The notes: generated by a model not told the origin, from the sequence alone. Shown: positions 2 to 51,380, numbered from the stretch's first letter. The stretch: DNA of 64,000 nucleotides from Planctomycetota bacterium (GCA_012514895.1 JAAYZK010000249.1:24217-88216); one strand, 5' to 3'. A program made the numbers and translations.

Positions 2-2215
2 ACGGCCAAGATCGCCGATTTCGGCGTCGCGGCCCAGGCCGGTGCGGCCGACTCGCTGGCGCTGGGCACGACGAAGTACATGGCCCCGGAGGCGTTCTCC
101 AACGCCGTGGTCGACGCCCGCGCGGATATCTACTCGCTGGGGTTCCTCGCCTACGAGATGCTCACCGGGCGGGAGTTCTTCGATCGCGTCTTTGCCGACG
201 TCGTCCGCGACCGTCCCAGCGAGAACGTCCGCTGGATGAAATGGCACGCCGACCTGGACCGGACGGCCCCGCGCCTCGACACGATCAATCCGCGGGTCAG
301 CGCCCCGCTGGCCGACTGCATCGCGCGGATGATGGCCAAGGACCCCGACCGCCGCTACGCGACCATCGACGCGGTCATCGCCGACCTGAAGGCCGTGCGC
401 GACCGTCCCGCCCCGGCGCCCGCGCTGGACCCGGTGCCGGCCGACCTGGACCTGGTCGCCGGCGCCGCCGACGCCCTGGAGGAACTGCCCACCGAAACCG
501 TCCCCCGCCGGCCGCTGCCCGTGCGGGTGAAGGTGCTGGCGGCGACGGCGGTGCTGTCGGTGCTGCTGCTGATCGGCTCGATCCTGGCCGTCTCCCTCAC
601 CACCGGCCACCGCGACCGCCGCCAGGAGGCCGCCGGCGCGCTGGAGGCCGCCATGCGGCTGTACCGCGACGCCGCCGACGACTACCACCGCGCCGGCCAG
701 GTGGACCGGGCCCTGGCGGGCTTCCGCGACGCGCAGGCGAGCCTGCGGAAGTGGGCCGACCGCTACGGCGACCTGCCCGAGGGCACCGTCGGCGCCCGGG
801 CGTGGGAGCGGATGAGCCAGGCCTACGAGGCGATGCTCGTGGGCGACTGGGAGCAGGCCGACACCCACCTGGAAGAGGCGCGGAAGCTGGGGGCGCTCGA
901 CCGCGAGACCGTCGTCGACGCCTTCGCGGTGACGCTGAGCACGCGTCGGACGGCGGTGGGGGACCTGGACGATCTGACCTACGCCGTCGACGCCGAGGAC
1001 TTCGAGCGGGCCGACCTGATCGTCCAGAGGCTCGGGGATCTCCAGGTGCCGCGGGATCAGCAGGACCGCCTGGCGCGGCTCACCGCCGGCATGACGGAGC
1101 GGCGCAAGGCGTACGAGATCCGCCGCTCGCTGGAGGCCGGCGACGCCGCCCTGGCCAACGCGGAGACCGCGGCGGCGGTGGACCGGATCGACCGTCTCAA
1201 CGAGGCCCGCGCACACCTGGACCAGGCGGAGATGCACTACAAGCTGGCGCAGAGTCGCGGCGACACGCCGGAGGTGCGCCAGCGCCTGCTGTCGGTGCGC
1301 CTGGCCCGCGGGTACATCGACGCGCGTGCGAACTACATCGCCGCCGTCGTCGGCGGCGCGCCGCTGGCCGAGCAGGTCAAGGCCCTGCAGGCCGTCGTGG
1401 ACGCCCGTCCGCCGACCGAGGCGCTGCGGGACAGGCTGGCTTCGGCCCAGGCCGAGGAGGCCTGGCAGCGGGCGGCGCCGCTGCTGGAGTCGGATCGCCC
1501 CGGCGACCTGGAGGCCGCCCGCGACGCGCTGGCCGCGTCCGTCGGCTACAAACCTCTGCCCAAGGCCGTCGAGGCCCTGGCCCAGGTCAGCGCGGCCCTG
1601 GAGCACGGCAAGCTGGTGGCCGACGCCCGGGCGGCGATGGACGAGGGCCGGTGGGCCCAGGCGATCGAGTGGCTCCAGCAGGCCCAGACCCTGGAGCAGC
1701 GGGGGGCCGCCGAGTCGATCCGCCGCCTGGCTCCCGTCGCCGACGCGTTGTCCGACGCGCGCGTGGGGCTGCACCTGTCCACCGGCGACCAGGCCCGCCG
1801 CGCCCAGCGGTGGGCGGAGGCCTTGGCCGACTACGAGCGGGCCCGCAAGGTCCGCCCGCAGGATGCGCAGGTGGCCTCGCAGGTCGACCAGCGGGTCGGC
1901 CTGGTGGAGCGGGAGAAGCAGTTCTACGCCTGGGTGGACGAGGGGCGCAGGTGCCTTGAAGCCGAAGACTACCGGCAGGCCGTCACCCTGCTGAACAGGG
2001 CCTACCAGGCCGGCAGCGCCCTGGAGGTCCCGCTGGAGGCCGTCACGGAGGTCCGCCAACTGGCCCGCTACCGCTGGGAGGTCGCCAAGGGCCGGACCGC
2101 CGAGGCCGACGGGAGCTTGCGCGAGGCGCTGGGCTACTACCGCGTCGCCCGGGACCTGATGGATACCGACGAGGTCCGCAAGCTGATCGAAGGCGTGATC
2201 GAGCGAGTCGAATGA
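2..2215 (+). CDS. Hanks-type Ser/Thr protein kinase, 5' end outside the window; kinase C-lobe, one TM helix, ~530-aa Ala/Arg-rich helical (TPR-like) outer region
   Basis: The frame is open from nt 2. Translation reads TAKIADFGVAAQ...GTTKYMAPE (DFG and APE motifs), then ADIYSLGFLAYEMLTG. A hydrophobic helix VKVLAATAVLSVLLLIGSILAVSL follows, then a long helical A/R/E/L-rich tail. The stop TGA at 2213-2215 overlaps the next ATG. Confidence 0.85.
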   Translation, partial: TAKIADFGVAAQAGAADSLALGTTKYMAPEAFSNAVVDARADIYSLGFLAYEMLTGREFFDRVFADVVRDRPSENVRWMKWHADLDRTAPRLDTINPRVSAPLADCIARMMAKDPDRRYATIDAVIADLKAVRDRPAPAPALDPVPADLDLVAGAADALEELPTETVPRRPLPVRVKVLAATAVLSVLLLIGSILAVSLTTGHRDRRQEAAGALEAAMRLYRDAADDYHRAGQVDRALAGFRDAQASLRKWADRYGDLPEGTVGARAWERMSQAYEAMLVGDWEQADTHLEEARKLGALDRETVVDAFAVTLSTRRTAVGDLDDLTYAVDAEDFERADLIVQRLGDLQVPRDQQDRLARLTAGMTERRKAYEIRRSLEAGDAALANAETAAAVDRIDRLNEARAHLDQAEMHYKLAQSRGDTPEVRQRLLSVRLARGYIDARANYIAAVVGGAPLAEQVKALQAVVDARPPTEALRDRLASAQAEEAWQRAAPLLESDRPGDLEAARDALAASVGYKPLPKAVEALAQVSAALEHGKLVADARAAMDEGRWAQAIEWLQQAQTLEQRGAAESIRRLAPVADALSDARVGLHLSTGDQARRAQRWAEALADYERARKVRPQDAQVASQVDQRVGLVEREKQFYAWVDEGRRCLEAEDYRQAVTLLNRAYQAGSALEVPLEAVTEVRQLARYRWEVAKGRTAEADGSLREALGYYRVARDLMDTDEVRKLIEGVIERVE

Positions 2216-4464
2216 CCGAGCTTTCCCCGGCACAGCGGCCCGATCGCACACGGTGCCGCCCGCGACGGCGCGGGCAGGTGCTGGTGGTGACGCTGCTGGC
2301 GATCGTGCTGCTGGCGGGGCTGATCTTTTTCGTGCTGAACGCCGGGGAGCAGGTGAACCGCCGCGTGATCGCCCAGGACGCCGCCGACGCCGCCGTCGTC
2401 AGCGGCGCGACGCACCTGGCGCGGAGCTTCAACAGCATCGCCGCGGGCAACCTGGCCATGAGCCGCATGCTCGCGGCGATCGTGACGCTGGACGACCTGG
2501 AGCGCTTCGCCGAGGCGTCGCACCGCCAGAGCGATGCGTTCCTCGGCCGCATGACCGCCCAGGCGTCCGCGGTCCTGCCGGCCGACCGTCTGCGGCACGC
2601 CACGCGCCGGGCCCTCGACGGCATCCGCGACACGCTCGACGAGGAGCACACGCTGCTGGAGGCGTACCTGCCGGTCATCGGCGAACTGCCCCTGCGCGAC
2701 CAGACCACCTACGACCTGCCGGGCGCCGAGGGCCCGCCGCCCCACGGGGCGTTCTGGCGGGCGGCGCGGGACCTGGACCTGGTCAACCAGGCCACGCTCG
2801 CCGCCGCCGGCGCGCTGGCCCAGACCAGCGCCGCCCGCCACGCCCGCGCCGCCGGTGCCGATGGCGGACTGCTGCTGCCCGTGCTGGCCGACCCGCCGGC
2901 CTGGCGCGCCGACTGGCACGCATGGCACCAGGACCCCGAACGCCGCACCTCGCTGCTGGTGAACGGCTGGCCGCCGGAACTGGACTTCGCCCCCGACGAC
3001 CCCGCCGACGACGAACTGGTGGCCCACCGCGGGGGGTTCTTCGCGCTGCTGGGATGGCGGAGCCCCTGGGGCTACCGCGACATCCACGACCCGTTCTTCC
3101 TCGGCGGCGGCGGCGGTCATGGGTCGCGCCCGGGTCAGCCGGCCAGCACGGCCTGGCACCCGCTGGGCTGGCGGGGCTACGGACCGGTCCAGTGGATGAG
3201 GGGGAGGGTCTACGACTACTGGCTCGACCGCCTGCACTACTCCGTGCCCTACTACTCCGTGCCCTACTACTCCGGGAACCGCCGCGTGCGGCCGCTGCTG
3301 GAGGGGCTGCAGCAGATCAAGCTGGCGTACATGTTCGACCCCGATTTCAGCGGCGGCGACACCGCCCGGCCGCTGAGCCTGCACGACCCGGACTGGCAGA
3401 CCGACTACTGGACCGCCCGCAACCGGGCACGCGGGGACGCGCCCGAACTGACGGCTCATTTCCGCATCGAGATCATGAGCCCTTACGCCCCCGACGACCC
3501 GCGGATCGACGGGATCCTCGACGACCCCTACCACAGCAACGTCCACGACCCGCAGTGGATCGTCCAGTGGGGTTGGAACGACCGCCAGGTCGGCATCGCC
3601 CGCGTCGATCTCGGCGCGCGGGTGACCGTCCATCTCTCGCCCCCCGGCGACCTGGAACTGCCCGAGGGCGTGATCCTGCCCGACCAGGTCACGATCGTCG
3701 TGCGGCTGAACGTGCGGAAGAACTGGCGGAAGATCGCCGAGCACATCTGGCACGTCGAGGTCTCGCCCCAGGAGTGGCAGGCGGAACTGGAACGGCTGAA
3801 CGCCGGCGGCGCACTGTGGGCGCAGGTCCGCGGCCGTCTGGGGCTGGCGGACCTGCCCCCGTTCGACTACACGTACGATGTCCCGGACTTCCCCTGGCGG
3901 ATCCTCCGCGACGTCTTCGCCGGGGCGGATTTCGGCCGGGACGTCGAGGTGCACAACCCGGCGAACTTCACCCTGGCCGACTATCCCGAAGCCCTGCCCG
4001 CGCCGATCCTGCTGGACCTGGACGTCGGCGACTACGACGCCGGCGACGCGGCGGACCCCTGGGACGACGCCGGCCACGACGCGCCGGTGCGCCGGGACCG
4101 CTTCACGTTCCTCGGCGTCGCCCGCCGCGGTTCGCAGGCCGTGGTGTGGCCGAGCCGCTTCCGGACGGGCAATCCCGGCGGGGCGATCACGGCCGTCGCC
4201 CAGGCGGAGCTGTACAACCCCACGAGCTGGGACCTCTGGACGCAGGACTGGCGGGTGCAACTCGTGCCCGTGACCGACATGGCCGCCTGGGCGGACGGCC
4301 TCGACGAGCAGCGCGACGCCTACCGCGACGTCGCCGGCGCCTCCGACGCCGCGGCCCTGCTGGACATGGCCGACGTGGACGCGATCAACGAGTACCTCCA
4401 GGCCCTGACGCGGGACGGCCGCTTGACCGGGCAGGCCCCGATCGACGCCCTGATGGAGCACTGA
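2212..4464 (+). CDS. TadG-like pilus assembly protein (Tad_N-type N-terminus), 750 aa
   Basis: N-terminus RRGQVLVVTLLAIVLLAGLIFFVLNAGEQVNRRVIAQDAADAAVVSGA matches the TadE/G-like N-terminal helix. ATGA overlap with the kinase stop. No vWA motif seen. Strong GC3 in this frame. Confidence 0.6.
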   Translation: MTELSPAQRPDRTRCRPRRRGQVLVVTLLAIVLLAGLIFFVLNAGEQVNRRVIAQDAADAAVVSGATHLARSFNSIAAGNLAMSRMLAAIVTLDDLERFAEASHRQSDAFLGRMTAQASAVLPADRLRHATRRALDGIRDTLDEEHTLLEAYLPVIGELPLRDQTTYDLPGAEGPPPHGAFWRAARDLDLVNQATLAAAGALAQTSAARHARAAGADGGLLLPVLADPPAWRADWHAWHQDPERRTSLLVNGWPPELDFAPDDPADDELVAHRGGFFALLGWRSPWGYRDIHDPFFLGGGGGHGSRPGQPASTAWHPLGWRGYGPVQWMRGRVYDYWLDRLHYSVPYYSVPYYSGNRRVRPLLEGLQQIKLAYMFDPDFSGGDTARPLSLHDPDWQTDYWTARNRARGDAPELTAHFRIEIMSPYAPDDPRIDGILDDPYHSNVHDPQWIVQWGWNDRQVGIARVDLGARVTVHLSPPGDLELPEGVILPDQVTIVVRLNVRKNWRKIAEHIWHVEVSPQEWQAELERLNAGGALWAQVRGRLGLADLPPFDYTYDVPDFPWRILRDVFAGADFGRDVEVHNPANFTLADYPEALPAPILLDLDVGDYDAGDAADPWDDAGHDAPVRRDRFTFLGVARRGSQAVVWPSRFRTGNPGGAITAVAQAELYNPTSWDLWTQDWRVQLVPVTDMAAWADGLDEQRDAYRDVAGASDAAALLDMADVDAINEYLQALTRDGRLTGQAPIDALMEH

Positions 4465-4468
4465 CCCT

Positions 4469-5047
4469 ATGCGCAACCGGGGCACGGCGATGAGCGAGTT
4501 CATCCTGGCACTGCCGCTGCTGATGCTGATCCTGGCGCTGGTGTGGATGGTCGGCTGGGTGCACCTCCGCAAGCAGCGGGTCGCCGTCGCCGCCCGCCAC
4601 GCGGTGCAGATGGACGTGGAGGGCGCCGCCGTGACCGACGCCGATCTTCGCCGCGACGGCCTGGGGCGCGCGGCCCGGTCGATCGACGCCCGCTGGCAGG
4701 GCGGGGACACGGGCGAACTGGGCGACTGGGTCGACGCCGTCGGCCTGGCCGGCCCCTCGCCGGCGGCGCTGGCCGACGAAGCCTTCGCGCAGCGCTGGCC
4801 GGCCGACCGCGGGCTGACGCTGGAGGTGAGGTACGACCCGCCCGTGGCGATCGCCCGCACCTTCGACAACGACATCACCGTTTCGTACCGCCAGGCCGGG
4901 CCGCCGTGGGTGCGCGGGGAAGCGCCGCTGGAACCGATCCTCGTCGGGCGCTACTGCGCCGACTTCGACGCCGCCCTGGCCGGCGCCGGCGGGGACGGCG
5001 CCGACCTGGCCGCCCGCATCCGCGGGCTGATCCAGGGGGAATGGTGA
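4469..5047 (+). CDS. TadE-like pilus assembly protein
   Basis: N-terminus RNRGTAMSEFILALPLLMLILALVWMVGWV fits the TadE family pattern (G-x-x-x-x-E-F-a-l-x-l-P plus hydrophobic helix). Starts 4 nt after the TadG-like stop. Confidence 0.6.
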   Translation: MRNRGTAMSEFILALPLLMLILALVWMVGWVHLRKQRVAVAARHAVQMDVEGAAVTDADLRRDGLGRAARSIDARWQGGDTGELGDWVDAVGLAGPSPAALADEAFAQRWPADRGLTLEVRYDPPVAIARTFDNDITVSYRQAGPPWVRGEAPLEPILVGRYCADFDAALAGAGGDGADLAARIRGLIQGEW

Positions 5048-5109
5048 CCGGGCGCGTTGCTTGAACGGCGGGGCGGATTTCGTGATGATGGGGGGGATTG
5101 GAGAGAACG

Positions 5110-5916
5110 ATGGCCGAAGCCGCGGCGAGCGGGTTCCGCAATACGCGATTGGTGCTGGTGGCGATGGTGCTGGCGGTGGCGTTCGTCGTGCTGCTGAACG
5201 TTCAGCGGTTCGTCGAGGCCCGCCGGCGGCAGCGCGGCCAGGTGGCGGTCGTGCTGGTCAAGGCCGACCTGGCGGCCGGGCAGGTGCTCGACGAGACGAA
5301 CGTCGAGCCCATCGCCGTCCCGCGGGCGGTCGCCGAGCGGGCCCGGGGGCTCTACCCCTACGGCGACCTGGAACTGGGCGTGACGCGCGTCCACCGCACG
5401 GTGGCCCGCAACGACCTGCTCCGTGTGACCGACATGCAGCAGTCCCTGGCCGTCGAGCACGCCCTGGCGCGGCGGATGGGCCCCGGCCGGCGGGCGATCA
5501 GCTTTGAGGTGGACCGCAGCCCCGGCAGCGCACACGTGCGGCCGGGGGCGCGGGTGGACCTGTACGGGGCCGTCCTCATCCCCGGCCAGCAGCCGGCGAC
5601 GCAGTTGATCATCGAGAACCTCGACGTTCTCAGCGTCGACGGGCAGACCGACCCGGACCTGGTCCGCCCCACGTTCCGCTCCATCGAGGTGCACGTGCCG
5701 GCCGCCCTGGTCGCCCAGCTCAAGGAGGTCCAGCGCCGCGTGGACGGCAAGCTGACCGTGGCGGTCCGCGCCCCGGGCGACACGTGGATGGCCTACCCCC
5801 ACGACGCCGCCCACCCCGAGCAGGGCGGCACGATCGCCCAGCCGGTGCTGGAGAGCCTCGCCAGGCAACTGCCGCCCGCCTACCGCGGCGGCGCGCAGGC
5901 CCTGGACGACCGGTAG
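5110..5916 (+). CDS. cpaB: Flp pilus assembly protein CpaB/RcpC-like (SAF domain)
   Basis: TM helix RLVLVAMVLAVAFVVLLNV, then a SAF-like segment VAVVLVKADLAAGQVLDETNVEPIAVP. I prefer ATG 5110 (GGAGAG 4 nt upstream) to the track's TTG 5098. Confidence 0.65.
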   Translation: MAEAAASGFRNTRLVLVAMVLAVAFVVLLNVQRFVEARRRQRGQVAVVLVKADLAAGQVLDETNVEPIAVPRAVAERARGLYPYGDLELGVTRVHRTVARNDLLRVTDMQQSLAVEHALARRMGPGRRAISFEVDRSPGSAHVRPGARVDLYGAVLIPGQQPATQLIIENLDVLSVDGQTDPDLVRPTFRSIEVHVPAALVAQLKEVQRRVDGKLTVAVRAPGDTWMAYPHDAAHPEQGGTIAQPVLESLARQLPPAYRGGAQALDDR

Positions 5917-5936
5917 CCGCAGGAGGACACCCCCGC

Positions 5937-7814
5937 GTGGAGATCTGGGTCTACAACCAGTACACCGACAAGCGCGAGATCGTCCCGGCGCCCGAAGAGG
6001 AAATTCTCATCGGGCGCGACGAGTCGGCCCACGTGCCCCTGCGCAGCCCCTTCATCAGCCGCCGCCACGCCCGGATCTTCCGCGCCGACGGGCGGATGTT
6101 CATCGAGAGCCTCGGGCTGAACGGCATCTCGGTGCGCAACGAGGAGGTCCCGGCCCGCGCCACCGTCCGCCTGGAGTACGGCGACGAAATCCGCGTCGGC
6201 GAGTACAGCCTCTACATGATGGAAGCCGCCGGCCGCGCCGGCCGCGGGCACGCCGCGCGGACCTCGCCCCGCAAGCGCGTCGTGGCCTTCGAGCAGCGCC
6301 TCCACGCGGCCCTGCTGGAGCGCCTCAACGTCCGCGCCGCCGGCGGGCGGATCAGCCGCGACGACGCCGAGTACGTCCGCCAGATCAAGCAGCACCTCGA
6401 CGAGATCATCGCCGCCGGCCTGGACGACGTCGACGACGACATGGCGGCCCTGCTGGTCCGCGACTTCCTCTGGCGGCGCACGCTCATCGAGGTCACCCGC
6501 CGCTGCACGGGGCAGATGATCTACGCGTACGGCTTCGAGGATTCGGACGTCCTGGACAGCGCCCAGGAGGACCGCGTCGGCCGGATCGTCGGCGACCTGA
6601 TCAGCCGCTGCCGCCTGCGCGGCCGCCCCGACGGACTGACCGCCGACGTCGCGGCTGTCGAGGAGCGCCTGGACGAACTGCTGGCCGCCGAGGCCGCACG
6701 CATCGACGACGCCTTGCGCCGCTACATGATCCGCCGCATGCTCCACAAGGAGATCGAGGACGTCGTGCTGGGCTTCGGGCCCCTGCAGGACCTGCTGGAC
6801 ATGCCCAACGTCAACGAGATCATGGTGGTCGGCAAGGACCACATCTACCTGGAGAAGGACGGCGTTGTCCAGGACTCCGGGCGGAGCTTCTTCTCCGACG
6901 AGATCGTCCAGAACATCATCGAGCGGATCATCACCCCCGTCGGCCGCCGCATCGACCGCTCCACGCCGCTGGTCGACGCGCGCCTCCCCGACGGGTCGCG
7001 CGTCAACGCGATCGTCAACCCGCTGAGCCTCTCCGGGCCGGTCCTGACGATCCGCAAGTTCGCGCGGATCCCCTTCACGATCGACGACCTCATCGAGCGG
7101 GACACGCTGACCGAGCGGACGGCGGGGTTCCTCAAGGGCTGCGTCGCGGGGCGGCGGAACATCATCATCAGCGGCGGGACCGGCTCGGGCAAGACGACCA
7201 CGCTGAACGTCCTGGGCGGCTTCATCGCCCGCGGAGAGCGGATCGTCACCATCGACGACTCCGCCGAACTGCAGTTGCCCCACGAGCACCTGGTCCGCCT
7301 GGAGACCCGCCCGGCCAACATCGAGGGGCGCGGGGCGTACACGATCCGCGACCTGGTCCGCAACGCCCTGCGGATGCGTCCCAACCGGCTCATCGTCGGC
7401 GAGTGCCGCGGGGGCGAGGCCCTGGACATGCTCCAGGCGATGAACACCGGCCACGACGGGTCGCTCACCACGATCCACGCCAACACGCCCGCCGACACGA
7501 TGGCCCGCCTGGAGACCATGGTCCTCATGGCCGTCGACATGCCCGTGCGGGCCATCCGCGAGCAGATCCTCGCCGCCATCGACCTGGTCGTCCAGATCGC
7601 CCGCACCGCCGACGGCCGCCGCCGCGTCACGCACATCAGCGAGGTGACCGGCATCGACGCCGACACCGGGCGGATCCTCATCGAGGATATCTTCGTCCTG
7701 CGGCCCGTGCCCGGCCGGCCCGACCGCAACTGCCTGCGCCACACGGGCTACATCCCCCCGTTCGTCGAGCGGATGATCGCCGGCGGGCACCTGGCCCTGG
7801 AGGTCTTCCTGTAG
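5937..7814 (+). CDS. cpaF: CpaF/TadA-family secretion ATPase with an N-terminal FHA domain
   Basis: GTG 5937 is preceded by AGGAGGA. FHA signature ILIGRDESAHVPLRSPFISRRHARIF...LGLNGISVRNEEV...GDEIRVGEYSLYM. Walker A GGTGSGKTTTLN. CpaF box ECRGGEALDMLQAMNTGHDGSLTTIHAN. The upstream part of ORF 5784.. overlaps cpaB and is not needed. Confidence 0.9.
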   Translation: MEIWVYNQYTDKREIVPAPEEEILIGRDESAHVPLRSPFISRRHARIFRADGRMFIESLGLNGISVRNEEVPARATVRLEYGDEIRVGEYSLYMMEAAGRAGRGHAARTSPRKRVVAFEQRLHAALLERLNVRAAGGRISRDDAEYVRQIKQHLDEIIAAGLDDVDDDMAALLVRDFLWRRTLIEVTRRCTGQMIYAYGFEDSDVLDSAQEDRVGRIVGDLISRCRLRGRPDGLTADVAAVEERLDELLAAEAARIDDALRRYMIRRMLHKEIEDVVLGFGPLQDLLDMPNVNEIMVVGKDHIYLEKDGVVQDSGRSFFSDEIVQNIIERIITPVGRRIDRSTPLVDARLPDGSRVNAIVNPLSLSGPVLTIRKFARIPFTIDDLIERDTLTERTAGFLKGCVAGRRNIIISGGTGSGKTTTLNVLGGFIARGERIVTIDDSAELQLPHEHLVRLETRPANIEGRGAYTIRDLVRNALRMRPNRLIVGECRGGEALDMLQAMNTGHDGSLTTIHANTPADTMARLETMVLMAVDMPVRAIREQILAAIDLVVQIARTADGRRRVTHISEVTGIDADTGRILIEDIFVLRPVPGRPDRNCLRHTGYIPPFVERMIAGGHLALEVFL

Positions 7815-7815
7815 C

Positions 7816-8667
7816 ATGGATCCGGCCGCGCTGAACATCCTGGTCAACGTACTGGCCTTCGCCGCGGTCTTCGTCGGCGTGCTGGCCGGCGCCGAGCCGC
7901 TGCGCCGCTGGGTGCTGGGCCAGGAGCGTGTGTACGGGCACATTCTCCGCACGTCGCTGCTGCTGGATGTCCGCCCCCGCTCGGCCACGTGGTTCGGCGC
8001 CGGCTGCGTCGCCGCCGCGGCGGCGGCCGGCTACCTGTTCATGCCCGGCCTGGTCGCGCCGGCCGCCGGCGGGGCCCTGGGGGCCGCGGCGCCGATGATC
8101 ACGCTGCGGGTCCTGCGGGCGCGGCGGCGGGCGAAGCTCGACGAACAGCTCGTGGACGGCATCCAGTCGCTGGCCGGCGGGGTGCGGGCGGGGCTGAACC
8201 TGGTGGGGGCGATGGAGCTGGTCGCGCGGAACCTGCCGGCGCCCATCAGCCAGGAGTTCGGCCACCTGCTGCGCGAGTACGAGTACGGCACGCCCATCGA
8301 GACGGCCATGGCCAACGCCGCCGGGCGGATCGCGCTGCCCAACTACCGCCTGGTGTTCTCCGCCCTGCAGACCCACCGCGAGCGGGGCGGTGACCTCGGC
8401 TCGACCCTCGACCGCATCGCCGAGTCCGTCCGCGAGATCCAGCGGCTGGAGAACCGCATCGAGGCGCTGACCGCCCAGAACCGCGCCGCCGCGCGGTGGA
8501 TGGGGGCCATGCCCGCGGTGATCCTGGCCATCCTGTACCTGATCGACCCGGCCGGGGTCGGCATGCTCTTCACCGACACGGTGGGCAAGATCCTGCTGGT
8601 GGCGATCGTGGCGATGAACGCCGTCGGATTCGCGTGGATCCGGCAGATCGTCTCCATCGACGTGTGA
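7816..8667 (+). CDS. tadB: TadB-like (type II secretion system F family) inner-membrane platform protein
   Basis: Position directly after cpaF. N-terminal TM helix, T2SSF-like core (QLVDGIQSLAGGVRAGLNLVGAMELVARNLPAPISQEF) and C-terminal TM helices. Confidence 0.75.
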   Translation: MDPAALNILVNVLAFAAVFVGVLAGAEPLRRWVLGQERVYGHILRTSLLLDVRPRSATWFGAGCVAAAAAAGYLFMPGLVAPAAGGALGAAAPMITLRVLRARRRAKLDEQLVDGIQSLAGGVRAGLNLVGAMELVARNLPAPISQEFGHLLREYEYGTPIETAMANAAGRIALPNYRLVFSALQTHRERGGDLGSTLDRIAESVREIQRLENRIEALTAQNRAAARWMGAMPAVILAILYLIDPAGVGMLFTDTVGKILLVAIVAMNAVGFAWIRQIVSIDV

Positions 8668-8674
8668 GGCCGCC

Positions 8675-9616
8675 ATGACGACCGCAACCGACATCACGCT
8701 CCTGGCCGCCGCCGACGGGTGGCTGGCGGTCCTGACCAGCCTGGCGGGCTTCGCCACGGTGCTGGTGGGCGTGGTCGCCCTGTTCGGCCACGCCGGCCGG
8801 ACGGCCGTCAGCCCGCAGCGGCGGATCGCCATCGCCACCGGGGCGGCCGACCGAAGGACCGTGTTCGAGTCCCAACTGCTGGGGCCTCTGATGTGGCTGC
8901 TGCTGCACCTGGCCGAGAAACTCTCGCTGGGCGGCTTCAAGCAGCGGCTCCGCGCGACGCTCATCGCCGCCGGCAGCCCCAGCTTCTACACCGCCGAGGA
9001 ATACCTGGCGATCGCCCTGCTGTGGGGGCTGGCGGCGGCGGCCGTGCTGGGGGGCGTCCACCTGCTGGCGCTGGGGTCGTTCAGCCTGCTGGCGGCCGGC
9101 GCGGGGCTGGTCGCGGGCGTGGCGCTGCCCCTGTACGTCCTGCACGACGCCGCCCGGCGGCGGGTGCGGCGGATCGGCCGCCACGTGCCCTACAGCCTCG
9201 ACCTGATCGCCCTGGCCATGGGGGCCGGCAGCACCTTCACCGAGGCGATCCGCACCGTCGTCCGCGAGGCCCCCGACGACCCGCTGAACGTCGAACTGGC
9301 GACCGTCCTGGCCGAGATGGACCTGGGCACGACCCGCCGGGCGGCCCTTGGCAACCTCGCCGAGCGGGTGCCGCTGGAGAGCCTGCGGGGCATCGTCGCG
9401 TCGATCATCCAGGCCGAGGATCTCGGCACGCCGATGGGCGACGTGCTGGCCGGCCAGTCCGAGCTGCTCCGCCGCCACCGCAGCGCGCGGGCCGAGAAGC
9501 TCGCGGCCCTGGCCAGCGTGCGGATCCTGGTGCCCAGCGTGATCATCCTGCTGTCGGTGGTGGTGACGGTCTTCGCGCCGATCATCATCCGCGCGGTGCG
9601 GGGGGAACTGCTCTGA
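8675..9616 (+). CDS. tadC: TadC-like (type II secretion system F family) inner-membrane platform protein
   Basis: Second T2SSF-family paralogue: YSLDLIALAMGAGSTFTEAIRTVVRE...LAEMDLGTTRRAALGNLAERVP. Its stop overlaps the next start (TGATG). Confidence 0.75.
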   Translation: MTTATDITLLAAADGWLAVLTSLAGFATVLVGVVALFGHAGRTAVSPQRRIAIATGAADRRTVFESQLLGPLMWLLLHLAEKLSLGGFKQRLRATLIAAGSPSFYTAEEYLAIALLWGLAAAAVLGGVHLLALGSFSLLAAGAGLVAGVALPLYVLHDAARRRVRRIGRHVPYSLDLIALAMGAGSTFTEAIRTVVREAPDDPLNVELATVLAEMDLGTTRRAALGNLAERVPLESLRGIVASIIQAEDLGTPMGDVLAGQSELLRRHRSARAEKLAALASVRILVPSVIILLSVVVTVFAPIIIRAVRGELL

Positions 9617-10668
9617 TGGCCGCCGCGCCCCATCCGATGCTCCTGCTGCTGGCCGGCCCCGACGCCGGCGGCGAGATCCTCCTGGATGTCCTGCCCGCCA
9701 CGGTCGGGCGGGGGGCGGCCTGCGCGGTGCGGCTGACCGACCCGACGGTCTCCCGCCAGCACGTCCGCCTGGCCCGAAGCGCCGAGGGGGTCGTCCTGAC
9801 GGTCCTGTCGTCCGCCGGCGTGCGGTTCGGCGAGGGGCGCAGGCGGTTCGGCAAGGGCAGGCAGCTCATCCTGGGCGGGGGGGACGTGATCCGCCTGGGG
9901 GGCCAGACCGCCATCCTCTTCGTCGACGCCGGCGGCGACCCGGCCGCGGCCCTGGCGGCCGTGCGGACGGCCGAGGCCCAGCCCGCGCCGGCCGCGCCGC
10001 CCCCGGCCGAAACGCCCCCGGCCGAGCCCGAGCCGGCCCCCGCGCCGGCCAGGGGCGAGGCGGCCCGGGAGGCTGCGTCTCCGCCGCGTCCGGCGTCGCG
10101 GACCCGCAGGCTGCTGATCGGCCTGGGCGTCTACCTGGCGGTGCTGGCGGTCGCGGCCGTCGCCCTGGGGATCTGGTCGTCGAACCGGCGGCGCCAGACC
10201 GCCGCGGCGCCGCCGCCGGCGCTGGACCGCGACCAGATCGTGGAGTTGCTCAAGGCCGAGCCGGCGGACGTCCAGCCCGACAGCCTCGAAGCCGCGGCGG
10301 TCCTGGCCGAGGCCCGCCAGCGGTTCGCCGGCCGCCACCTCGTCGAGGGCGACGCCTACCGGTGCGTGCGGCTCTACCTGCGCTACAAGGTCCTCAGCGG
10401 CCGCGCCAGCTTCGAGACCCTCGACGATCAGCAGAAGTTCGACACCGCCCTGCAGGACCTGCTGGGCCGGCTCTGGCCCCGCTACGAGCGCGCCTGCCTC
10501 GACCTCCGCCAGGGCCGCTACCACCCCGCCCGCGAGGGCTTCGAGAAGGTCCGCCAGCTCATCCCCATCGAGAACGACCCCATCAACCGCAACGCCCAGC
10601 GCCACCTGCGGTACATCCTCGACCGCACCGCCAGGAAGGAGCGGACGTATCGGGGGTTCGGCGGATAG
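9616..10668 (+). CDS. FHA-domain membrane protein (cytoplasmic FHA, Pro/Ala-rich linker, TM helix, helical periplasmic domain)
   Basis: In-frame ATG at 9616 inside track ORF 8719..10668. FHA pattern ATVGRGAACAVRLTDPTVSRQHVRLARS...GDVIRLGGQTAILF. Linker PAPAAPPPAETPPAEPEPAPAPA. TM helix LLIGLGVYLAVLAVAAVALGIW. Confidence 0.7.
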   Translation: MAAAPHPMLLLLAGPDAGGEILLDVLPATVGRGAACAVRLTDPTVSRQHVRLARSAEGVVLTVLSSAGVRFGEGRRRFGKGRQLILGGGDVIRLGGQTAILFVDAGGDPAAALAAVRTAEAQPAPAAPPPAETPPAEPEPAPAPARGEAAREAASPPRPASRTRRLLIGLGVYLAVLAVAAVALGIWSSNRRRQTAAAPPPALDRDQIVELLKAEPADVQPDSLEAAAVLAEARQRFAGRHLVEGDAYRCVRLYLRYKVLSGRASFETLDDQQKFDTALQDLLGRLWPRYERACLDLRQGRYHPAREGFEKVRQLIPIENDPINRNAQRHLRYILDRTARKERTYRGFGG

Positions 10669-10849: not shown

Positions 10850-12757
10850 ATGACACCGTCCCCTCATGCCGCCGCACCTGGCCGTCCGGCGGGTCTGGAG
10901 CCCCTCGAGCCTCGCCTGTTCCTGTCGGCGTCGGGCGCCGATCCGGCCGTCCCGGCCCCCCCCGGCGGCGCCGCGGCCGTCGCCGTCTTCGAACCGGCGG
11001 CGGCGCCGCTAGGGGAGGAGCCCGTCGGAGATGTCGCCTGGTCGCCGACGCCCTTCGAGCAGGAGATGCTCGAATGGCTCAATGACATGCGGATGGACCC
11101 GGCCGGGCACCTGGGACGGATGGTGGACAGCCTGGACCCGATCCACTCGCCCGACCCGAGGATCCATTCGGCCCTGACCTACTTCGGCGTCGACGGCGAC
11201 GCGCTGCTGGCCGAGTGGGGCACGCTGGCGCCGGCCGACCCGCTGATCTGGAACGGCGCCCTGATGCAGGCGGCCCGCGGCCACAGCCAGTTGATGATCG
11301 ACCACGACATGCAGTCGCATCAACTGCCCGGCGAACCGTCCCTCGGCGCCAGGGCCCTCGAAGCGGGGTACTCGTACTCCTATCTCGCGGAGAACATCTA
11401 CGCCTACGCCCAGACGGTTCCCTTCGGCCACGCCGGCTTCGCCATCGACTGGGGGTTCGGCAGCGACGGGGACGGCATGCAGGACCCGCCGGGCCACCGC
11501 AACAACATGATGAACGCCTCGCTGCGCGAGATCGGCATCGGCATCCTCCAGGAGCACGACGGCCAGACCGACGTCGGGCCCCTCGTCGTGACCCAGGACC
11601 TCGGCGACCGCTGGAACTTCGACACGCCGTACCTCACCGGCGTCGTGTACGCCGACGCCGACGGGGACGGCTTCTACGACGCCGGGGAGGGCCTCGGCGG
11701 CGCCACCGTCGCCGTCACCGGACCGGGGGGAACCGTCCAGGTGACGACGATGACCGCCGGCGGGTACCAGATCGCCGTCCAGCCGGGCGAGTACACCGTC
11801 CAGTTTTCCCTCCCCGGGTACGCGCCGGCTGCCCGCGGCGCCGTCGCCGCCCTCGGCCGCACGGTCAAGGCGGACGGCATCCTGACCGAGGCGGCGGCGA
11901 GCGTCGTCGGACGCCACGTCTTCTACAACCACTCGGTGCTGGACGGCGGCACGGCCGGCCCGTCGGCGCTGGATGACAACGCCATCGCCGCCGGCAAGCA
12001 GGCCCTGCTGCCCGGACAGCCCGCCGGCCCGGCCAACCGCATCGCCTACGCCAGGGGCCTCAACGGCATCATGGTCGACATCCAGGGCCTGCCGGACGGC
12101 GGCGGGCTGACCCTCGCGACGATCGACGACTGCTTCGACTTTCGGATCAGGACGGCCGGCGGGGCCTCCTGGACGGCGGCGCCGGCCCCGACGGCGCTGG
12201 ACGTGCGCGCCGGCGACGGCGTCGGCGGCAGCCACCGCGTCACGCTCCTCTGGGCCGACGGCGCCATCTCCGCCGCCTGGCTCGAGGTCACCGTCAAGGC
12301 CGTCGCCGCGACCGGCCTGGGCGCCCCCGACGTCTTCTCCTTCGCCGCCCTTGCCGGTGACGCCGACGCCGACGGCGCGGTCACCCTGGACGACTTCGTC
12401 CGCCTCAAGCAGGGCTTCGGCACCTCCGGCGGGGGCACCGCCTCCGGCGACTTCGACCTGGGCGGCACCGTCGACCTGGACGACTTCGTCACGCTCAAGG
12501 TGAACTTCGGCCTGGCCCTGGCTGATCCCGCCTCGGCCGCCGCCGCGGCCGCCGATCCCGCGGCCGCCGGCACGCCCCGCGCCGCGGGGGCGGTCGCCGA
12601 GACGCCGTCGCGACCCGCGGGGGAGGGCCCCGCCGGGGTCCTGCGGCATCGCCGCGCCCGCCGCGGGCGCAGCGCCGCCCTTCCGCAGTCCCCGGGCGGC
12701 CCGCCCGTCGTGGATCTCCTGGCCTGGCCGCGATCCTGGCCCCTCATCCGTGCGTGA
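10850..12757 (+). CDS. Secreted LEPR-XLL-motif protein with CAP/SCP-like domain, beta-sandwich region and two C-terminal dockerin-like repeats
   Basis: N-terminal LEPLEPRLFLSA motif. CAP-like block AARGHSQLMIDHDMQSHQL...YLAENIYAY...PPGHRNNMMNASLREIGIGI. Tail GDADADGAVTLDDFVRLKQGFG and GDFDLGGTVDLDDFVTLKVNFG. Confidence 0.6.
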   Translation: MTPSPHAAAPGRPAGLEPLEPRLFLSASGADPAVPAPPGGAAAVAVFEPAAAPLGEEPVGDVAWSPTPFEQEMLEWLNDMRMDPAGHLGRMVDSLDPIHSPDPRIHSALTYFGVDGDALLAEWGTLAPADPLIWNGALMQAARGHSQLMIDHDMQSHQLPGEPSLGARALEAGYSYSYLAENIYAYAQTVPFGHAGFAIDWGFGSDGDGMQDPPGHRNNMMNASLREIGIGILQEHDGQTDVGPLVVTQDLGDRWNFDTPYLTGVVYADADGDGFYDAGEGLGGATVAVTGPGGTVQVTTMTAGGYQIAVQPGEYTVQFSLPGYAPAARGAVAALGRTVKADGILTEAAASVVGRHVFYNHSVLDGGTAGPSALDDNAIAAGKQALLPGQPAGPANRIAYARGLNGIMVDIQGLPDGGGLTLATIDDCFDFRIRTAGGASWTAAPAPTALDVRAGDGVGGSHRVTLLWADGAISAAWLEVTVKAVAATGLGAPDVFSFAALAGDADADGAVTLDDFVRLKQGFGTSGGGTASGDFDLGGTVDLDDFVTLKVNFGLALADPASAAAAAADPAAAGTPRAAGAVAETPSRPAGEGPAGVLRHRRARRGRSAALPQSPGGPPVVDLLAWPRSWPLIRA

Positions 12758-12856: not shown

Positions 12857-15562
<2,706 letters not shown>

Positions 15563-15733
15563 GGTCGTGTCGACCTCCATCCGTTCGGCGGTGCACGCTC
15601 CCTTGGCTGCCGTGTTGCCGTCCCCGATGGACGGCTGCGTCGGCGCCGAAGCGTGACGATCTGTGGTATGCCGGTCCGCGCGCCGTCCCGTGACGGGCGC
15701 ATTCTCATCCCCGGCGGGGAAAAACAGGCAGGG

Positions 15734-15762
15734 AGTGTAGTGGGGTCTCCGGCGGGTGTCAA
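15734..15762 (-). promoter_or_regulatory. Candidate sigma70-type promoter for ppdK (TTGACA-17-TACACT)
   Basis: On the minus strand, TTGACA (15762-15757), a 17-nt spacer, then TACACT (15739-15734). Implies a ~165-nt leader before ATG 15562. Confidence 0.4.
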
Positions 15763-15830
15763 CCGATTTCCGGCCGCCGCCGGGCCTCCTGCCGCCTGCG
15801 GCCTTTCGTACGAAGCCTCGGGCGGTTAGG

Positions 15831-16049
15831 ATGGCGCTCATGCAAGAAAGACCGCCCTGGCTCCACGTGGTCGTCCTGGTCGCGCTGCTGGTCCTGACGG
15901 CCGCCTCGGTCGGCGTGGCGCTGCTGATGCTCCACACCCCCGACCGGCACCCGGCCCGGCCGCCCGCGACGGCTCCCGCGACGGCCCCCGCGCCGGAGGC
16001 CGACGCCCGCGTCCCCGACCTGTGGCCGACGGCCCCCGGCCGGGCTTGA
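15831..16049 (+). CDS. Possible small membrane protein (72 aa, one TM helix, Pro/Ala-rich tail)
   Basis: [35 protein letters not shown]... Third codon positions are almost all G/C in this frame, which fits coding. No recognisable family. Confidence 0.35.
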
Positions 16050-16121
16050 CCTGCGGCGGGGGACCGACCGCGGAGGCCCGCCTGGGCAATCATCGCGATA
16101 CGCGAATCTGTGGAGGACGTG

Positions 16122-21756: not shown

Positions 21757-21785
21757 TTGAGACCGCCGGGCCGTCCCGCTACAAT
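21757..21785 (+). promoter_or_regulatory. Candidate sigma70-type promoter (TTGAGA-17-TACAAT)
   Basis: TTGAGA at 21757-21762, a 17-nt spacer, TACAAT at 21780-21785, about 58 nt upstream of ATG 21844. Confidence 0.35.
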
Positions 21786-21843
21786 CCCATCCCGACGCGC
21801 CGGCGCCCGGATCGCCGCGCGCGTGGACCACGGGAGTACATCC

Positions 21844-22938
21844 ATGAGTGAAACGCTGACCAGCAGGGAACGCGTTGCCCGCACCCTCCGCCGCGAGCCG
21901 GTCGACCGCGTCCCTGTCGGCGAGTCGTTCTGGGCCGACACGCAGGCGAGATGGACCGAGCAGGGCCACGTCCGGCCCGGTGCGAACCTGGCCGAGCACT
22001 TCGGCCACGATTACCGCCTCATGTGGGCCTTCAACACCGTCGCCGACCTCGACTTCGGCGAGCGGATCGTCGAGGAGACCGACGAAACCAAGCTCGTCCG
22101 CAACGGCAACGGCGCCCTGCTGCGGTGGTGGAAACACAAGAGCGGTACGCCCGAGCACGTGGACTTCCTCGTCACCGATCGCGCCGGCTGGGACGAACAC
22201 GCCCGCCCCTACCTGGTCAACGCCGACAACTACCGCCGCCGGATCAACTTCGAAGGCTATCGCAGGACCAAGGCCTACTGCGCCGAGCGGGAGCTGTTCT
22301 TCATGTGGTCCGGCGTCAACGTCTTCGAGATGATGCACCCGGTGTGCGGCCACGAGTACATGCTCATGGGCATGGCGCTGGACCCCGATTGGGTCAAGGA
22401 TATGTGCGACGTCTACGCGACGCTCACGATCGACCTGATGGAGATCCTCTTCGCCGAGGAGGGCCTGCCTGACGGGATCTGGTTCTACGAGGACATGGGC
22501 TTCAAGCAGCGCCCCTTCATGTCGCCGGCGATGTACCGCGACATCATCTTCCCCGCCCACAAGCGCACCTGCGACTACGCCCACGCCAGGGGCCTGCCCG
22601 TCGTGATGCACTCGTGCGGCTACGTCGAGCCGCTCCTGCCGGGCATGATCGAGGCGGGGATCGACTGCCTCCAGGCGATGGAGGTCAAGGCCGGCATGGA
22701 CCTGCTGAAGCTCAAGCAACACTACGGCGACCGCATCGCCTTCTGCGGGGGCCTGGACATCCGCGAACTGGAAAGCAACGACCTCGCCCGCGTCAGGGCC
22801 CTCATCGACGCCAAGCTCCCCGCCGCCATGGCCGGCGGCGGCTACATCCTCCACACCGATCACAGCGTATCCAGCCGCGTCGACTACGAGACGTATCGGA
22901 CGTTCGTCGAATACGGGCTGAAGGTGGGGACGTACTGA
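21844..22938 (+). CDS. Uroporphyrinogen decarboxylase (URO-D) family protein
   Basis: MSETLTSRERVARTLRREPVDRVPVGE..., then a TIM-barrel-like body ending GGGYILHTDHSVSSRVDYETYRTFVEY, typical of URO-D/MtaA-like enzymes. Confidence 0.6.
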   Translation: MSETLTSRERVARTLRREPVDRVPVGESFWADTQARWTEQGHVRPGANLAEHFGHDYRLMWAFNTVADLDFGERIVEETDETKLVRNGNGALLRWWKHKSGTPEHVDFLVTDRAGWDEHARPYLVNADNYRRRINFEGYRRTKAYCAERELFFMWSGVNVFEMMHPVCGHEYMLMGMALDPDWVKDMCDVYATLTIDLMEILFAEEGLPDGIWFYEDMGFKQRPFMSPAMYRDIIFPAHKRTCDYAHARGLPVVMHSCGYVEPLLPGMIEAGIDCLQAMEVKAGMDLLKLKQHYGDRIAFCGGLDIRELESNDLARVRALIDAKLPAAMAGGGYILHTDHSVSSRVDYETYRTFVEYGLKVGTY

Positions 22939-41567: not shown

Positions 41568-41837
41568 GGTCGCCCATCTCCCGAACGCGCCGGTCCTCCA
41601 GGTATACCGCCGCCGCCGGCCCCTGTCGCGGGGGAATTGTCCGACAAGGCGGTAAACCCCCGCAACCGCATGGGCGATATCCACTTGCACGGACCGTTGT
41701 CGCCCGGCCCTCGCCCGGCCGCCGGCGGGGGGAGGAAATCCGCCGTTTCGGGCGGAACCTGGGGCCGCCGGCGGTGTTTCAAGGTCATGGGGCGACGGGC
41801 GGGGGGCGCGGTATCTTCGGACCTGGAGTGGTGTTCC

Positions 41838-47032: not shown

Positions 47033-47037
47033 CGCCC

Positions 47038-51297: not shown

Positions 51298-51380
51298 ACC
51301 GTATAAGCGCCCGGTGCGCCGGTGGTCTGTCCTGACCGGCCGCCGGTGATGGACGTTGCCGCACTGTGAGGAGAAGTTGC

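Follow-up and report, generated by a model that had tools for sequence, protein, structure and literature searches.

The DNA analysed here is a stretch of 64,000 nt from Planctomycetota bacterium GCA_012514895.1 (JAAYZK010000249.1:24217-88216), referred to below as the window. Positions 2-10668 carry eight tightly packed genes, all on the plus strand and each with Pfam support: a Hanks kinase, TadG-like, TadE-like, CpaB/RcpC, FHA-CpaF, TadB, TadC and an FHA protein with a transmembrane helix (FHA-TM). This is also the gene content that had been read in a first-pass annotation of the same DNA. The gaps between successive genes measure -4, 4, 50, 20, 1, 7 and -1 nt; the ATGA overlap at 2212 between the kinase stop and the TadG-like ATG, which the annotation had pointed out, is indeed found in the sequence, and TadC and FHA-TM overlap as TGATG. 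Scanning the eight-gene run for an internal terminator gave no convincing candidate. Given the packing and the conserved gene order, the eight genes are probably co-transcribed.

The kinase gene (2-2215; Pfam Pkinase, 3.4e-15) is incomplete. The window begins inside it, at DFG, and consequently the Pkinase profile is matched at positions 137-254 only. The membrane Ser/Thr kinase of the first-pass annotation is real, but what the window contains of its catalytic domain is the C-lobe, the N-terminus being cut off by the edge (737 C-terminal residues of 901 are present). It is followed by a large TadG-like pseudopilin of 750 aa (2212-4464; Pfam Tad PF13400 at residues 21-67, 3.8e-5, with syntenic orthologues), a TadE-like pseudopilin of 192 aa (4469-5047; Pfam TadE, 6.8e-6, and synteny) and a CpaB/RcpC-family protein (5098-5916; Pfam RcpC, 9.1e-8), which may start at TTG 5098 or at ATG 5110.

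The motor ATPase (5937-7814, 625 aa) starts with a GTG behind GGAGGA. Within this single ORF, an FHA domain (approximately residues 14-95, nt 5976-6221; Pfam FHA 24-88, 3.2e-14) is followed by a linker with a helical region and by the CpaF core (Pfam T2SSE 280-563, 5e-55), which is the architecture of class III CpaF. Walker A (GGTGSGKTT) lies at residue 413, and residues 251-593 match the solved CpaF structures 8rkd/9e24 (E 3e-99). The N-terminal extension had been put at about 110 residues; the FHA domain is there as described, but about 250 residues precede the part that aligns to the core (some 95 for FHA, then the linker and helical region), roughly 130 more than in Caulobacter CpaF. The phosphothreonine-binding set of this FHA domain is complete (G26-R27, S41, H44 and N62-G63), and in alignment it matches OdhI, GarA and Rv1747, whose FHA domains bind pThr ('GR...SRRH...LNG' in OdhI/GarA). 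Homologues number in the thousands. For the best 120, full-length identity is 64-78%, and every one of them combines FHA with T2SSE.

Downstream are the adjacent platform genes TadB (7816-8667; Pfam T2SSF, 5.9e-18) and TadC (8675-9616; T2SSF, 2.2e-16), and the FHA-TM gene (9616-10668, 350 aa; Pfam FHA 2.5e-8, Yop-YscD_cpl 2e-8), which is conserved directly 3' of TadC in relatives. The FHA-TM protein consists of a cytoplasmic FHA domain (nt 9646-9924), a Pro/Ala-rich linker, a transmembrane helix (nt 10111-10176; residues 166-187) and a helical periplasmic domain of approximately 160 aa. G31, R32, S46 and R47 do not vary among 12 orthologues. H49 is present in the window protein, though several orthologues have Gln there, and Ala67 stands where the canonical Asn would be, leaving a partial set of pThr-binding residues (Gly-Arg, Ser and His). 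Both FHA domains of the window had been taken for phosphothreonine readers, and both retain Arg, Ser and His in alignment.

The kinase and its juxtamembrane threonine

From DFG onwards the kinase comprises the C-lobe with the activation loop GTTKYMAPE, a juxtamembrane linker, one transmembrane helix (VKVLAATAVLSVLLLIGSILAVSL, nt 527-598) and a periplasmic TPR-like domain of 540 aa. The full-length protein (P0121, 901 aa) shows GVGGQALV at 33, VALK at 52, HRDIKPGN at 150, DFG at 170 and APE at 192. All elements expected of a competent Hanks kinase (Gly-rich loop, VAIK Lys, alphaC Glu, HRD, DFG and APE) are found in it, so that, judged by its motifs, the kinase is catalytically intact. Across 45 orthologues, conservation of the catalytic motifs and of the activation-loop threonines reaches at least 90%.

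The helical outer domain of the first-pass annotation can be specified as a TPR-like superhelix: the AF2 model (pLDDT 95.4) consists of helical hairpins throughout, and Foldseek returns TPR superhelices, with a flagellar periplasmic scaffold as the best match by TM-score. The ectodomain is best described as a generic TPR scaffold, and the sensor role given to it is putative. The two closest relatives of the kinase, P0122 (72-74% identical, locus L104) and P0123 (61% identical, locus L105), are solitary: their neighbours are unrelated genes, and no Tad gene comes within 10 kb of either. The L105 protein has entirely lost the kinase domain and the Thr motif described below, and has kept the transmembrane helix and ectodomain. 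Given these two relatives, the ectodomain is of value independently of Tad genes in cis.

Outside the folded domains, the most conserved feature of the kinase is a short juxtamembrane motif, T-A-x-[I/L]-P-[K/R], which is common to about 100 orthologues and is located 12-13 residues before the transmembrane helix (a spacing kept in 79/96 homologues). In the window it reads P-T-E-T-V-P-R-R (nt 488-511), with Thr328 (nt 491-493) 12 residues N-terminal of the helix; T-E-T-V deviates from the T-A-x-[I/L] consensus. Among homologues of 26-72% identity, 95/96 have the Thr and the remaining one has Ser, position +3 is I/L/V in 92/96, +4 is Pro in 96/100 and +5 is K/R in 78/96. The T and P columns are the only ones between kinase domain and ectodomain that reach at least 90% conservation, the linker being otherwise unalignable. 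There are exceptions: P0125 has Ala at +3 although its cluster is intact, and the kinases of L005 and L012 lack the motif. Many FHA domains prefer ligands of the form pTxx[I/L/V]. The juxtamembrane motif fits this pattern and is a candidate FHA docking site.

Gene order in relatives

The window cluster is the downstream part of a 14-gene cluster conserved in Phycisphaerae-type Planctomycetota, the upstream half of which falls before the window start. The full order, seen in twelve further loci, is CpaF2, small Flp-like, Flp, prepilin peptidase, TadE-like, kinase, TadG, TadE, (x), RcpC, FHA-CpaF, TadB, TadC and FHA-TM. Upstream of the kinase, relatives thus have two Flp-like pilin genes and a prepilin peptidase gene, which lie between a second CpaF, without an FHA domain, and a TadE-like gene. 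Flp1_like/Flp_Fap and Peptidase_A24 are found directly upstream in all orthologous loci for which enough DNA is covered (L081, L103, L106, L107 and L108).

Among the 14 close-clade loci with enough upstream DNA, window counted, the kinase slot (between TadE-like and TadG-like) is filled in 13, even though the kinases are only 26-48% identical to that of the window, against 55-75% for CpaF. Searches from the distant kinases P0131, P0183 and P0125 reach the same 14-gene cluster, and 15 further kinase matches are on contigs equal in size to those of FHA-CpaF matches. Another gene order is present in other Phycisphaerales (L005 and L012), namely FHA-CpaF, TadB, TadC, FHA-TM and kinase, of which the last two overlap by 4 nt (ATGA) in L012. 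The first-pass reading depended on the kinase being conserved next to FHA-CpaF in relatives, and both gene orders bear this out.

We also counted Hanks kinases within 10 kb of CpaF genes in species-representative genomes (genome loci of at least 15 kb). With loci not weighted by phylogeny, a kinase is found near 7/14 FHA-fused CpaF genes against 1/40 FHA-less ones (Fisher p = 1.3e-4), or 6/14 against 1/40 (p = 7e-4) when one pseudokinase is left out, corresponding to a roughly 30-40-fold enrichment. In three loci (L056, L075 and L080) the linkage is loose, with the kinase 7-9 kb from FHA-CpaF. No kinase was seen near the CpaB-to-FHA-TM block of L093, within 10 kb upstream of the Pirellulaceae-type FHA-CpaF clusters L003 and L050 (little downstream DNA is covered), or within 10 kb on either side of the Lentisphaerota-type clusters L009 and L049.

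The system contains a CpaF/TadA-family ATPase (on the basis of T2SSE, the match to solved CpaF and Walker A), paired GspF-fold platform genes (two adjacent T2SSF genes), and TadE/TadF/TadG-type pseudopilins with RcpC/CpaB (these three profile matches all above Pfam cut-offs). No secretin (RcpA/CpaC), TadZ/CpaE or TadD was found in the window cluster or in the +/-10 kb gene lists of six relatives (L081, L102, L103, L106, L107 and L108), and for this reason we call the system Tad-like. The 64-kb window has just one secretin, which is part of a different cluster at 51-62 kb.

A possible phosphorylation switch of the pilus motor

The gene content points to a phosphorylation switch of the pilus motor, undescribed for Tad systems. 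We lean, by a modest degree, towards the view that the kinase is a dedicated, built-in part of the Phycisphaerae-type Tad-like machine, controlling the FHA-bearing motor via phosphothreonine. The chain of phosphorylation, docking and functional outcome that we infer would run as follows. The periplasmic TPR superhelix would bind a machine or envelope partner, most obviously TadE/TadG, the minor pilins encoded next to it, or CpaB, and binding would alter the oligomeric state of the kinase. The Hanks domain would then autophosphorylate on the activation loop GTTKYMAPE and on the juxtamembrane T328, and pT328, or a pThr put by the kinase on another Tad subunit, would be bound by the FHA domain of CpaF and/or that of FHA-TM. 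This may recruit or activate the FHA-CpaF hexamer at the TadB/TadC platform. Since the full cluster of relatives contains a second, FHA-less CpaF, the switch probably determines which of the two motors acts at the platform; the two states could be extension and retraction, for example, or on and off.

A more specific version is offered tentatively, as a possibility that we consider less likely than not: the kinase, with its periplasm-spanning TPR arm, would be built in stoichiometric amounts into a Tad-like machine that has two motors and no secretin. Its self-phosphorylated juxtamembrane Thr would report the periplasmic or minor-pilin state to the cytoplasm and the FHA domain of one CpaF would dock there, so that phosphorylation picks the motor. 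If true, no kinase-gated motor of a type IV filament would have been known before it, and the FHA-rich Kil and class III CpaF systems would be given the kinase they lack. Such a switch would bear on how Tad motors are turned on and off, or from extension to retraction; in Caulobacter both of these jobs fall to a single CpaF.

Other explanations have to be weighed against a dedicated kinase that controls the motor. In analogy to the T6SS of Agrobacterium, the kinase might, rather than being the dock itself, mark a membrane Tad subunit (the FHA-TM linker, cytoplasmic parts of TadB/TadC or the CpaF linker) and the FHA domains might read that site, the juxtamembrane Thr being regulatory only or unrelated. 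There is precedent in the binding of Fha to phospho-TssL after PpkA action (PMC3953482). In line with it, the L005 and L012 kinases are without the juxtamembrane motif, yet paired with an FHA-TM gene and FHA-CpaF, and across PVC lineages no gene accompanies FHA-CpaF more constantly than FHA-TM does, including clusters without a cis kinase (L009 and L049). Nonetheless we judge such substrate marking unlikely: the FHA-TM linker evolves fast and yielded no conserved Thr, and the conservation of the juxtamembrane motif would be left unexplained.

It might also be argued that the role is structural, the TPR superhelix standing in for the missing TadD, TadZ or secretin-associated factors and the FHA domains being phospho-independent modules, as in T3SS YscD/PrgH, with kinase activity dispensable. 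The confident 540-aa TPR array and its likeness to a flagellar scaffold would agree with this, as would the match of FHA-TM to the YscD cytoplasmic-domain family, the L105 protein reduced to helix and ectodomain (with L104 keeping its kinase without Tad neighbours) and the absence of a PP2C phosphatase from the gene lists of relatives' loci. However, the conservation of catalytic motifs and activation-loop threonines argues against it, and a cytoplasmic Thr motif would be without a role in a purely periplasmic scaffold. Moreover, the CpaF FHA domain keeps every pThr-contacting residue, in contrast to the FHA folds of T3SS, which are degenerate. We therefore hold a scaffold with dispensable kinase activity to be quite improbable. 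That the kinase regulates an unrelated process and was merely trapped in the operon in this lineage seems most improbable of all. Planctomycetota encode many Ser/Thr kinases, and both the orphan copies (L104 and L105) and the FHA-CpaF clusters without a cis kinase (L003, L050 and L093) would be expected under such a history, but it sits badly with a slot retained across kinases down to 26-35% identity, with a second, independent gene order including a gene overlap, and with the enrichment of kinases beside FHA-fused over FHA-less CpaF.

Comparison with known systems

Canonical Tad/Flp pili (Aggregatibacter tad, Caulobacter cpa) share CpaF/TadA, TadB, TadC, TadE/TadG and RcpC/CpaB with the cluster, whose relatives have in addition Flp-like pilins with a G/xxxxE[WY] motif and a prepilin peptidase. 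The Phycisphaerae-type systems depart from this textbook set by having two CpaF paralogues, an inserted kinase and FHA-TM gene, and no cis RcpA/CpaC, TadZ/CpaE or TadD. The first-pass annotation knew of no characterised kinase-gated Tad system, and our literature searches likewise found none.

A likeness in logic is seen with threonine phosphorylation in T6SS (PpkA-Fha1-PppA in P. aeruginosa and PpkA-TssL-Fha in Agrobacterium; PMC3953482, PMC5995506), where the gene cluster of the machine includes a membrane-bound Hanks kinase that has a periplasmic domain, together with a pThr-reading FHA protein that promotes assembly. T6SS, however, is a contractile machine with FHA on a separate scaffold, whereas here FHA is fused to the motor ATPase of a type IV filament; the cluster has no T6SS core genes, and the cognate PP2C PppA carried by T6SS clusters has no counterpart in it or in the gene lists of relatives. 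In Sulfolobus, too, a type IV filament system, the archaellum, is regulated by Ser/Thr kinases and an FHA protein (ArnA, with ArnB; PMC4858521), but there the control acts on expression, unlike the control proposed here.

FHA-fused CpaF itself is already known. Class III CpaF (FHA-IDR-3HB-NTD-CTD, e.g. Achromobacter xylosoxidans E3HIW0) has the same N-terminal FHA linked to a CpaF core and was reported mostly in betaproteobacteria, with no kinase discussed (PMC12019362); here it forms a very large planctomycete family with linkage to a kinase in cis. The Kil system of Myxococcus xanthus is a Tad-like apparatus for contact-dependent killing, with KilF, a CpaF with N-terminal FHA, as its central ATPase (PMC8460266). 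It has further FHA proteins (the PrgH-like MXAN_4649 beside a platform gene, and KilD and MXAN_4648 with FHA and TPR) and is without TadZ, TadD and other canonical parts, and its authors proposed a T6SS-like phospho-cascade; the main text lists no kinase in the Kil clusters, only an FHA+TPR protein that HHpred finds similar to 'protein kinase G' (PMC8460266). In a Myxococcota locus (L008) we find FHA-CpaF, TadB, TadC, an FHA protein and a second CpaF, as in the cluster. Kil is, however, split over two clusters with one ATPase and its own short, N0-less secretin KilC, and serves predation; the present system forms one contiguous cluster with two CpaF and no cis secretin, and has a catalytically intact membrane kinase mid-cluster. 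Because FHA-CpaF and additional FHA proteins are shared, while a single cluster without cis secretin is not what Kil has, we regard the cluster as Kil-like, not as a member.

FHA-fused CpaF is thus common, with thousands in Planctomycetota, KilF in Myxococcus and class III in betaproteobacteria, and its presumed kinase was never named. The cluster offers a candidate kinase in cis, a Thr that hardly varies and is a candidate dock, and a second FHA protein as partner, giving the idea of phospho-signalling defined residues (T328 of the kinase; R27, S41 and H44 of CpaF). Taken as a whole, it would represent a kinase-gated variant of class III CpaF and Kil-like systems.

Gene content and conservation of the cluster

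The first 10.7 kb of the window hold eight genes in the same direction (+ strand), and Pfam supports the Tad module, kinase and two FHA proteins described in the first-pass annotation. The stop of a Hanks kinase gene (2-2215; Pkinase 3.4e-15, profile positions 137-254 only) overlaps as ATGA with the start of a TadG-like gene of 750 aa (2212-4464; Tad PF13400, 3.8e-5). Further downstream are TadE-like (4469-5047; 6.8e-6), CpaB/RcpC (5098-5916; 9.1e-8), FHA-CpaF, the motor ATPase with an N-terminal FHA domain (5937-7814; FHA 3.2e-14, T2SSE 5e-55), TadB (7816-8667; T2SSF 5.9e-18), TadC (8675-9616; T2SSF 2.2e-16) and FHA-TM, an FHA protein of 350 aa with a TM helix (9616-10668; FHA 2.5e-8, Yop-YscD_cpl 2e-8). 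Since the kinase frame is open from base 2, the window starts within this gene, at the DFG motif. FHA-CpaF begins with GTG, preceded by GGAGGA, and the TadC stop and FHA-TM start overlap as TGATG. The intergenic gaps measure -4, 4, 50, 20, 1, 7 and -1 nt, a packing from which co-transcription of the eight genes can reasonably be inferred. No convincing terminator was found within the run, but sigma-70 promoter and intrinsic terminator scans are uninformative in this planctomycete DNA of 73% G+C.

Gene lists around FHA-CpaF homologues, together with tblastn maps, indicate that the window contains only half of a conserved cluster. Its 14-gene order runs from an FHA-less CpaF (~370 aa) through a small Flp-like protein, Flp pilin, A24 prepilin peptidase and TadE-like protein (~310 aa) to the kinase, and continues with TadG-like, TadE, (a small protein), RcpC, FHA-CpaF, TadB, TadC and FHA-TM. 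The order recurs in twelve loci of relatives (L081, L001, L084, L085, L091, L092, L097, L102, L103, L106, L107 and L108), where the block is flanked by unrelated genes; the window's own upstream set is predicted from these relatives. FHA-CpaF has thousands of homologues; the best 120 share 64-78% identity along the full length, all combine FHA with T2SSE, and their source names, where given, are Planctomycetes or Phycisphaerae. The gene lists of the 14-gene-order loci contain no secretin, TadZ/CpaE, TadD or PP2C phosphatase; lacking the first three in cis, the system is therefore named Tad-like.

Several neighbouring genes deserve mention. Directly 3' of the cluster, the window encodes a probable secreted protein of 635 aa (10850-12757, +) with CAP, CarboxypepD_reg and SdrD_B-like domains (Pfam), whose position is not kept in relatives. 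The wider neighbourhood shows residual synteny, in that the window (16110-18971, 21757-22938) and L108 (16528-21870) share GH123 glycoside hydrolase and URO-D-like genes close to the cluster. L081, whose FHA-CpaF is 75% identical, has one more phospho-signalling gene after the cluster, which the window lacks; it encodes an FHA-GAF-HATPase_c protein of 543 aa (15381-17012).

Elsewhere in the window, a cluster at ~41.3-61.9 kb includes a secretin ORF of 3,500 aa (51366-61868, +) with GspD N0, ~30 Secretin_N (PF03958) repeats (1154 bits, 30 stretches) and a C-terminal Secretin domain. Upstream of it are genes for an MshEN+T2SSE ATPase (41340-43508), a T2SSK-like protein (46561-48540) and a PilM-like protein (48554-50197). 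TRF gave zero matches on the repeats, which have diverged at the DNA level and hence are not an assembly artefact. A literature search found no paper tying Planctomycetes to such giant secretins.

Linkage of the kinase to FHA-CpaF

The first-pass annotation made its reading depend on a kinase conserved next to FHA-CpaF in relatives, and such conservation is indeed observed. Counting the window, 14 close-clade loci have enough upstream DNA, and in 13 of them the kinase occupies the same slot; the exception (L093) has the CpaB-to-FHA-TM block only. The slot kinases are merely 26-48% identical to that of the window against 55-75% for CpaF, so that the slot has outlasted a long divergence. In the reverse direction, the distant kinase homologues P0131 (34%), P0183 (29%) and P0125 (48%) each lead to the same cluster, and 15 further kinase matches lie on contigs equal in size to those of FHA-CpaF matches. 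A second order (FHA-CpaF, TadB, TadC, FHA-TM, kinase) is found in the more distant Phycisphaerales loci L005 and L012, where CpaF is 41-42% identical to the window's; in L012 the FHA-TM and kinase genes overlap as ATGA.

A genome-contig scan with full-length FHA-CpaF returned mostly generic CpaF, with at least ~9 full-length FHA-CpaF loci among the matches listed; the FHA-less CpaF loci among them served as controls, and profile HMMs were built for the kinase and FHA domains. For the matches listed on loci of 15 kb or more, 7/14 FHA-fused CpaF genes have a Hanks kinase within 10 kb, against 1/40 FHA-less ones (p = 1.3e-4 by a Fisher test that ignores kinship between loci). We rejected the kinase-like gene of L008 as a third independent arrangement, because HRD and DFG are missing from its product, which makes it a pseudokinase; dropping it leaves 6/14 (p = 7e-4). 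In this Myxococcota MAG, an Flp pilin (GQGMTEYI), a 145-aa ORF and the pseudokinase (1-2764, -) flank the FHA-CpaF cluster.

Outside the close clade, not every FHA-CpaF locus has a kinase nearby. No kinase is present in the 10 kb upstream of FHA-CpaF in the Pirellulaceae loci L003 and L050, nor within 10 kb on either side in the Lentisphaerota-type loci L009 and L049. As the kinase is 7-9 kb away in L056, L075 and L080, tight embedding is a Phycisphaerae feature. The pairing of FHA-CpaF with a downstream FHA protein spans the PVC group, since it is kept in L009 and L049; in these Lentisphaeria/Victivallales MAGs, the stretch at ~9.4-15.3 kb of each locus encodes FHA-fused CpaF, TadB, TadC and, after them, one to three additional FHA proteins.

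The FHA domains and the kinase protein

Over residues 251-593, the ATPase core of FHA-CpaF matches the solved structures of Caulobacter CpaF at E 3e-99. All canonical residues are present in its FHA domain (G26-R27, S41-x-x-H44, N62-G63), which aligns position by position with those of OdhI, GarA and Rv1747, all pThr binders. For FHA-TM, a word-index search with the protein gave zero true orthologues, and 12 were drawn from syntenic loci instead: Gly31-Arg32 and Ser46-Arg47 are invariant, His49 of the window protein is replaced by Gln in several, and Ala67 occupies the canonical Asn position. The Arg/Ser/His residues on which the earlier reading depended are thus kept in both window domains (R27/S41/H44 in CpaF, R32/S46/H49 in FHA-TM); FHA-TM may likewise bind pThr, though less certainly than the CpaF domain. 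We make no claim on the fold of its periplasmic domain, for which the single-sequence model was unusable (pLDDT 44.6).

The recovered full-length window kinase (P0121, 901 aa) has its motifs intact: Gly-rich loop, VALK, HRDIKPGN, DFG, APE and the activation loop GTTKYMAPE. A single TM helix (residues 340-363) precedes a 540-residue ectodomain, which AlphaFold2 (45 orthologues) models as an unbroken array of helical hairpins (pLDDT 95.4), in agreement with the helical outer domain proposed earlier. Foldseek returned generic TPR superhelices only, at low TM-scores (the best being a periplasmic flagellar scaffold), and no specific sensor family. Given this confident model and the generic matches, the ectodomain, whose sensor role is putative, is read as a protein-binding scaffold.

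Between kinase domain and TM helix the linker is unalignable across ~100 homologues save for one motif, [A/P]-T-A-x-[I/L]-P-[K/R]. Thr is present in 95/96 homologues (Ser in one), followed by Ala at +1 (83/96), I/L/V at +3 (92/96), Pro at +4 (96/100) and K/R at +5 (78/96). The motif lies 12-13 residues ahead of the TM helix in 79/96, and of all columns between kinase domain and ectodomain only its T and P reach 90% conservation. A Thr followed by an aliphatic residue at +3 is what many FHA domains classically bind, and in other bacterial Hanks kinases a juxtamembrane pThr serves to recruit FHA proteins. The motif, P-T328-E-T-V-P-R-R in the window, is a candidate FHA docking site and our most specific testable lead. 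Its apparent decay in the solitary homologue P0122, which has Ser in place of Thr and Ala at +3, was dropped as evidence, as P0125 likewise has Ala at +3 with its cluster intact.

Proposed control of the motor and relation to known systems

As far as sequence analysis goes, the conserved kinase slot and the retained FHA residues support the proposed kinase/FHA control of the Tad motor, and on balance we lean towards a dedicated phospho-switch that would act on FHA-CpaF. The specific docking route through T328 is conceivable but rather doubtful. Counted against the switch is that a cognate phosphatase was not seen in cis. Moreover, the two closest kinase relatives are solitary: P0122 in L104 (10001-12730; 72-74% identical) and P0123 in L105 (10001-11974; 61%) each have a DUF308 gene on one side and a tRNA synthetase gene (tRNA-synt_1c) on the other, and Tad genes are absent within 10 kb. 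The L105 protein has lost the whole kinase domain and Thr motif and retains the TM helix and TPR ectodomain. Either the Tad genes have moved elsewhere in these genomes or the ectodomain has a Tad-independent use; either account leaves a structural, scaffolding role of the kinase protein as a less probable alternative to the phospho-switch.

CpaF fused to FHA already has a name in the literature, 'class III' CpaF (PMC12019362), and also occurs as KilF of the Myxococcus Kil apparatus, which has many FHA proteins in its clusters and for which a T6SS-like phospho-cascade was proposed with the kinase unnamed (PMC8460266); in a 2025 review (PMC12428579) the FHA proteins are still 'promising candidates'. 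A phospho-switch is a natural idea given the FHA fusion, and one already voiced as speculation for Kil; what makes it directly testable is that the cis kinase is conserved and the candidate docking motif is defined. Consistent with the first-pass annotation, our literature search found no paper that places a Ser/Thr kinase within a Tad locus or describes a Tad motor gated by a kinase. We rate the system as Kil-like and class III-CpaF Tad-like, with a kinase in cis, two CpaF paralogues and no secretin/TadZ in cis. The closest parallel in mechanism is offered by threonine phosphorylation in the T6SS (PpkA/Fha/TssL; PMC3953482), a pathway that serves a different machine and has its FHA domain on a separate protein, whereas here it is carried by the motor itself.
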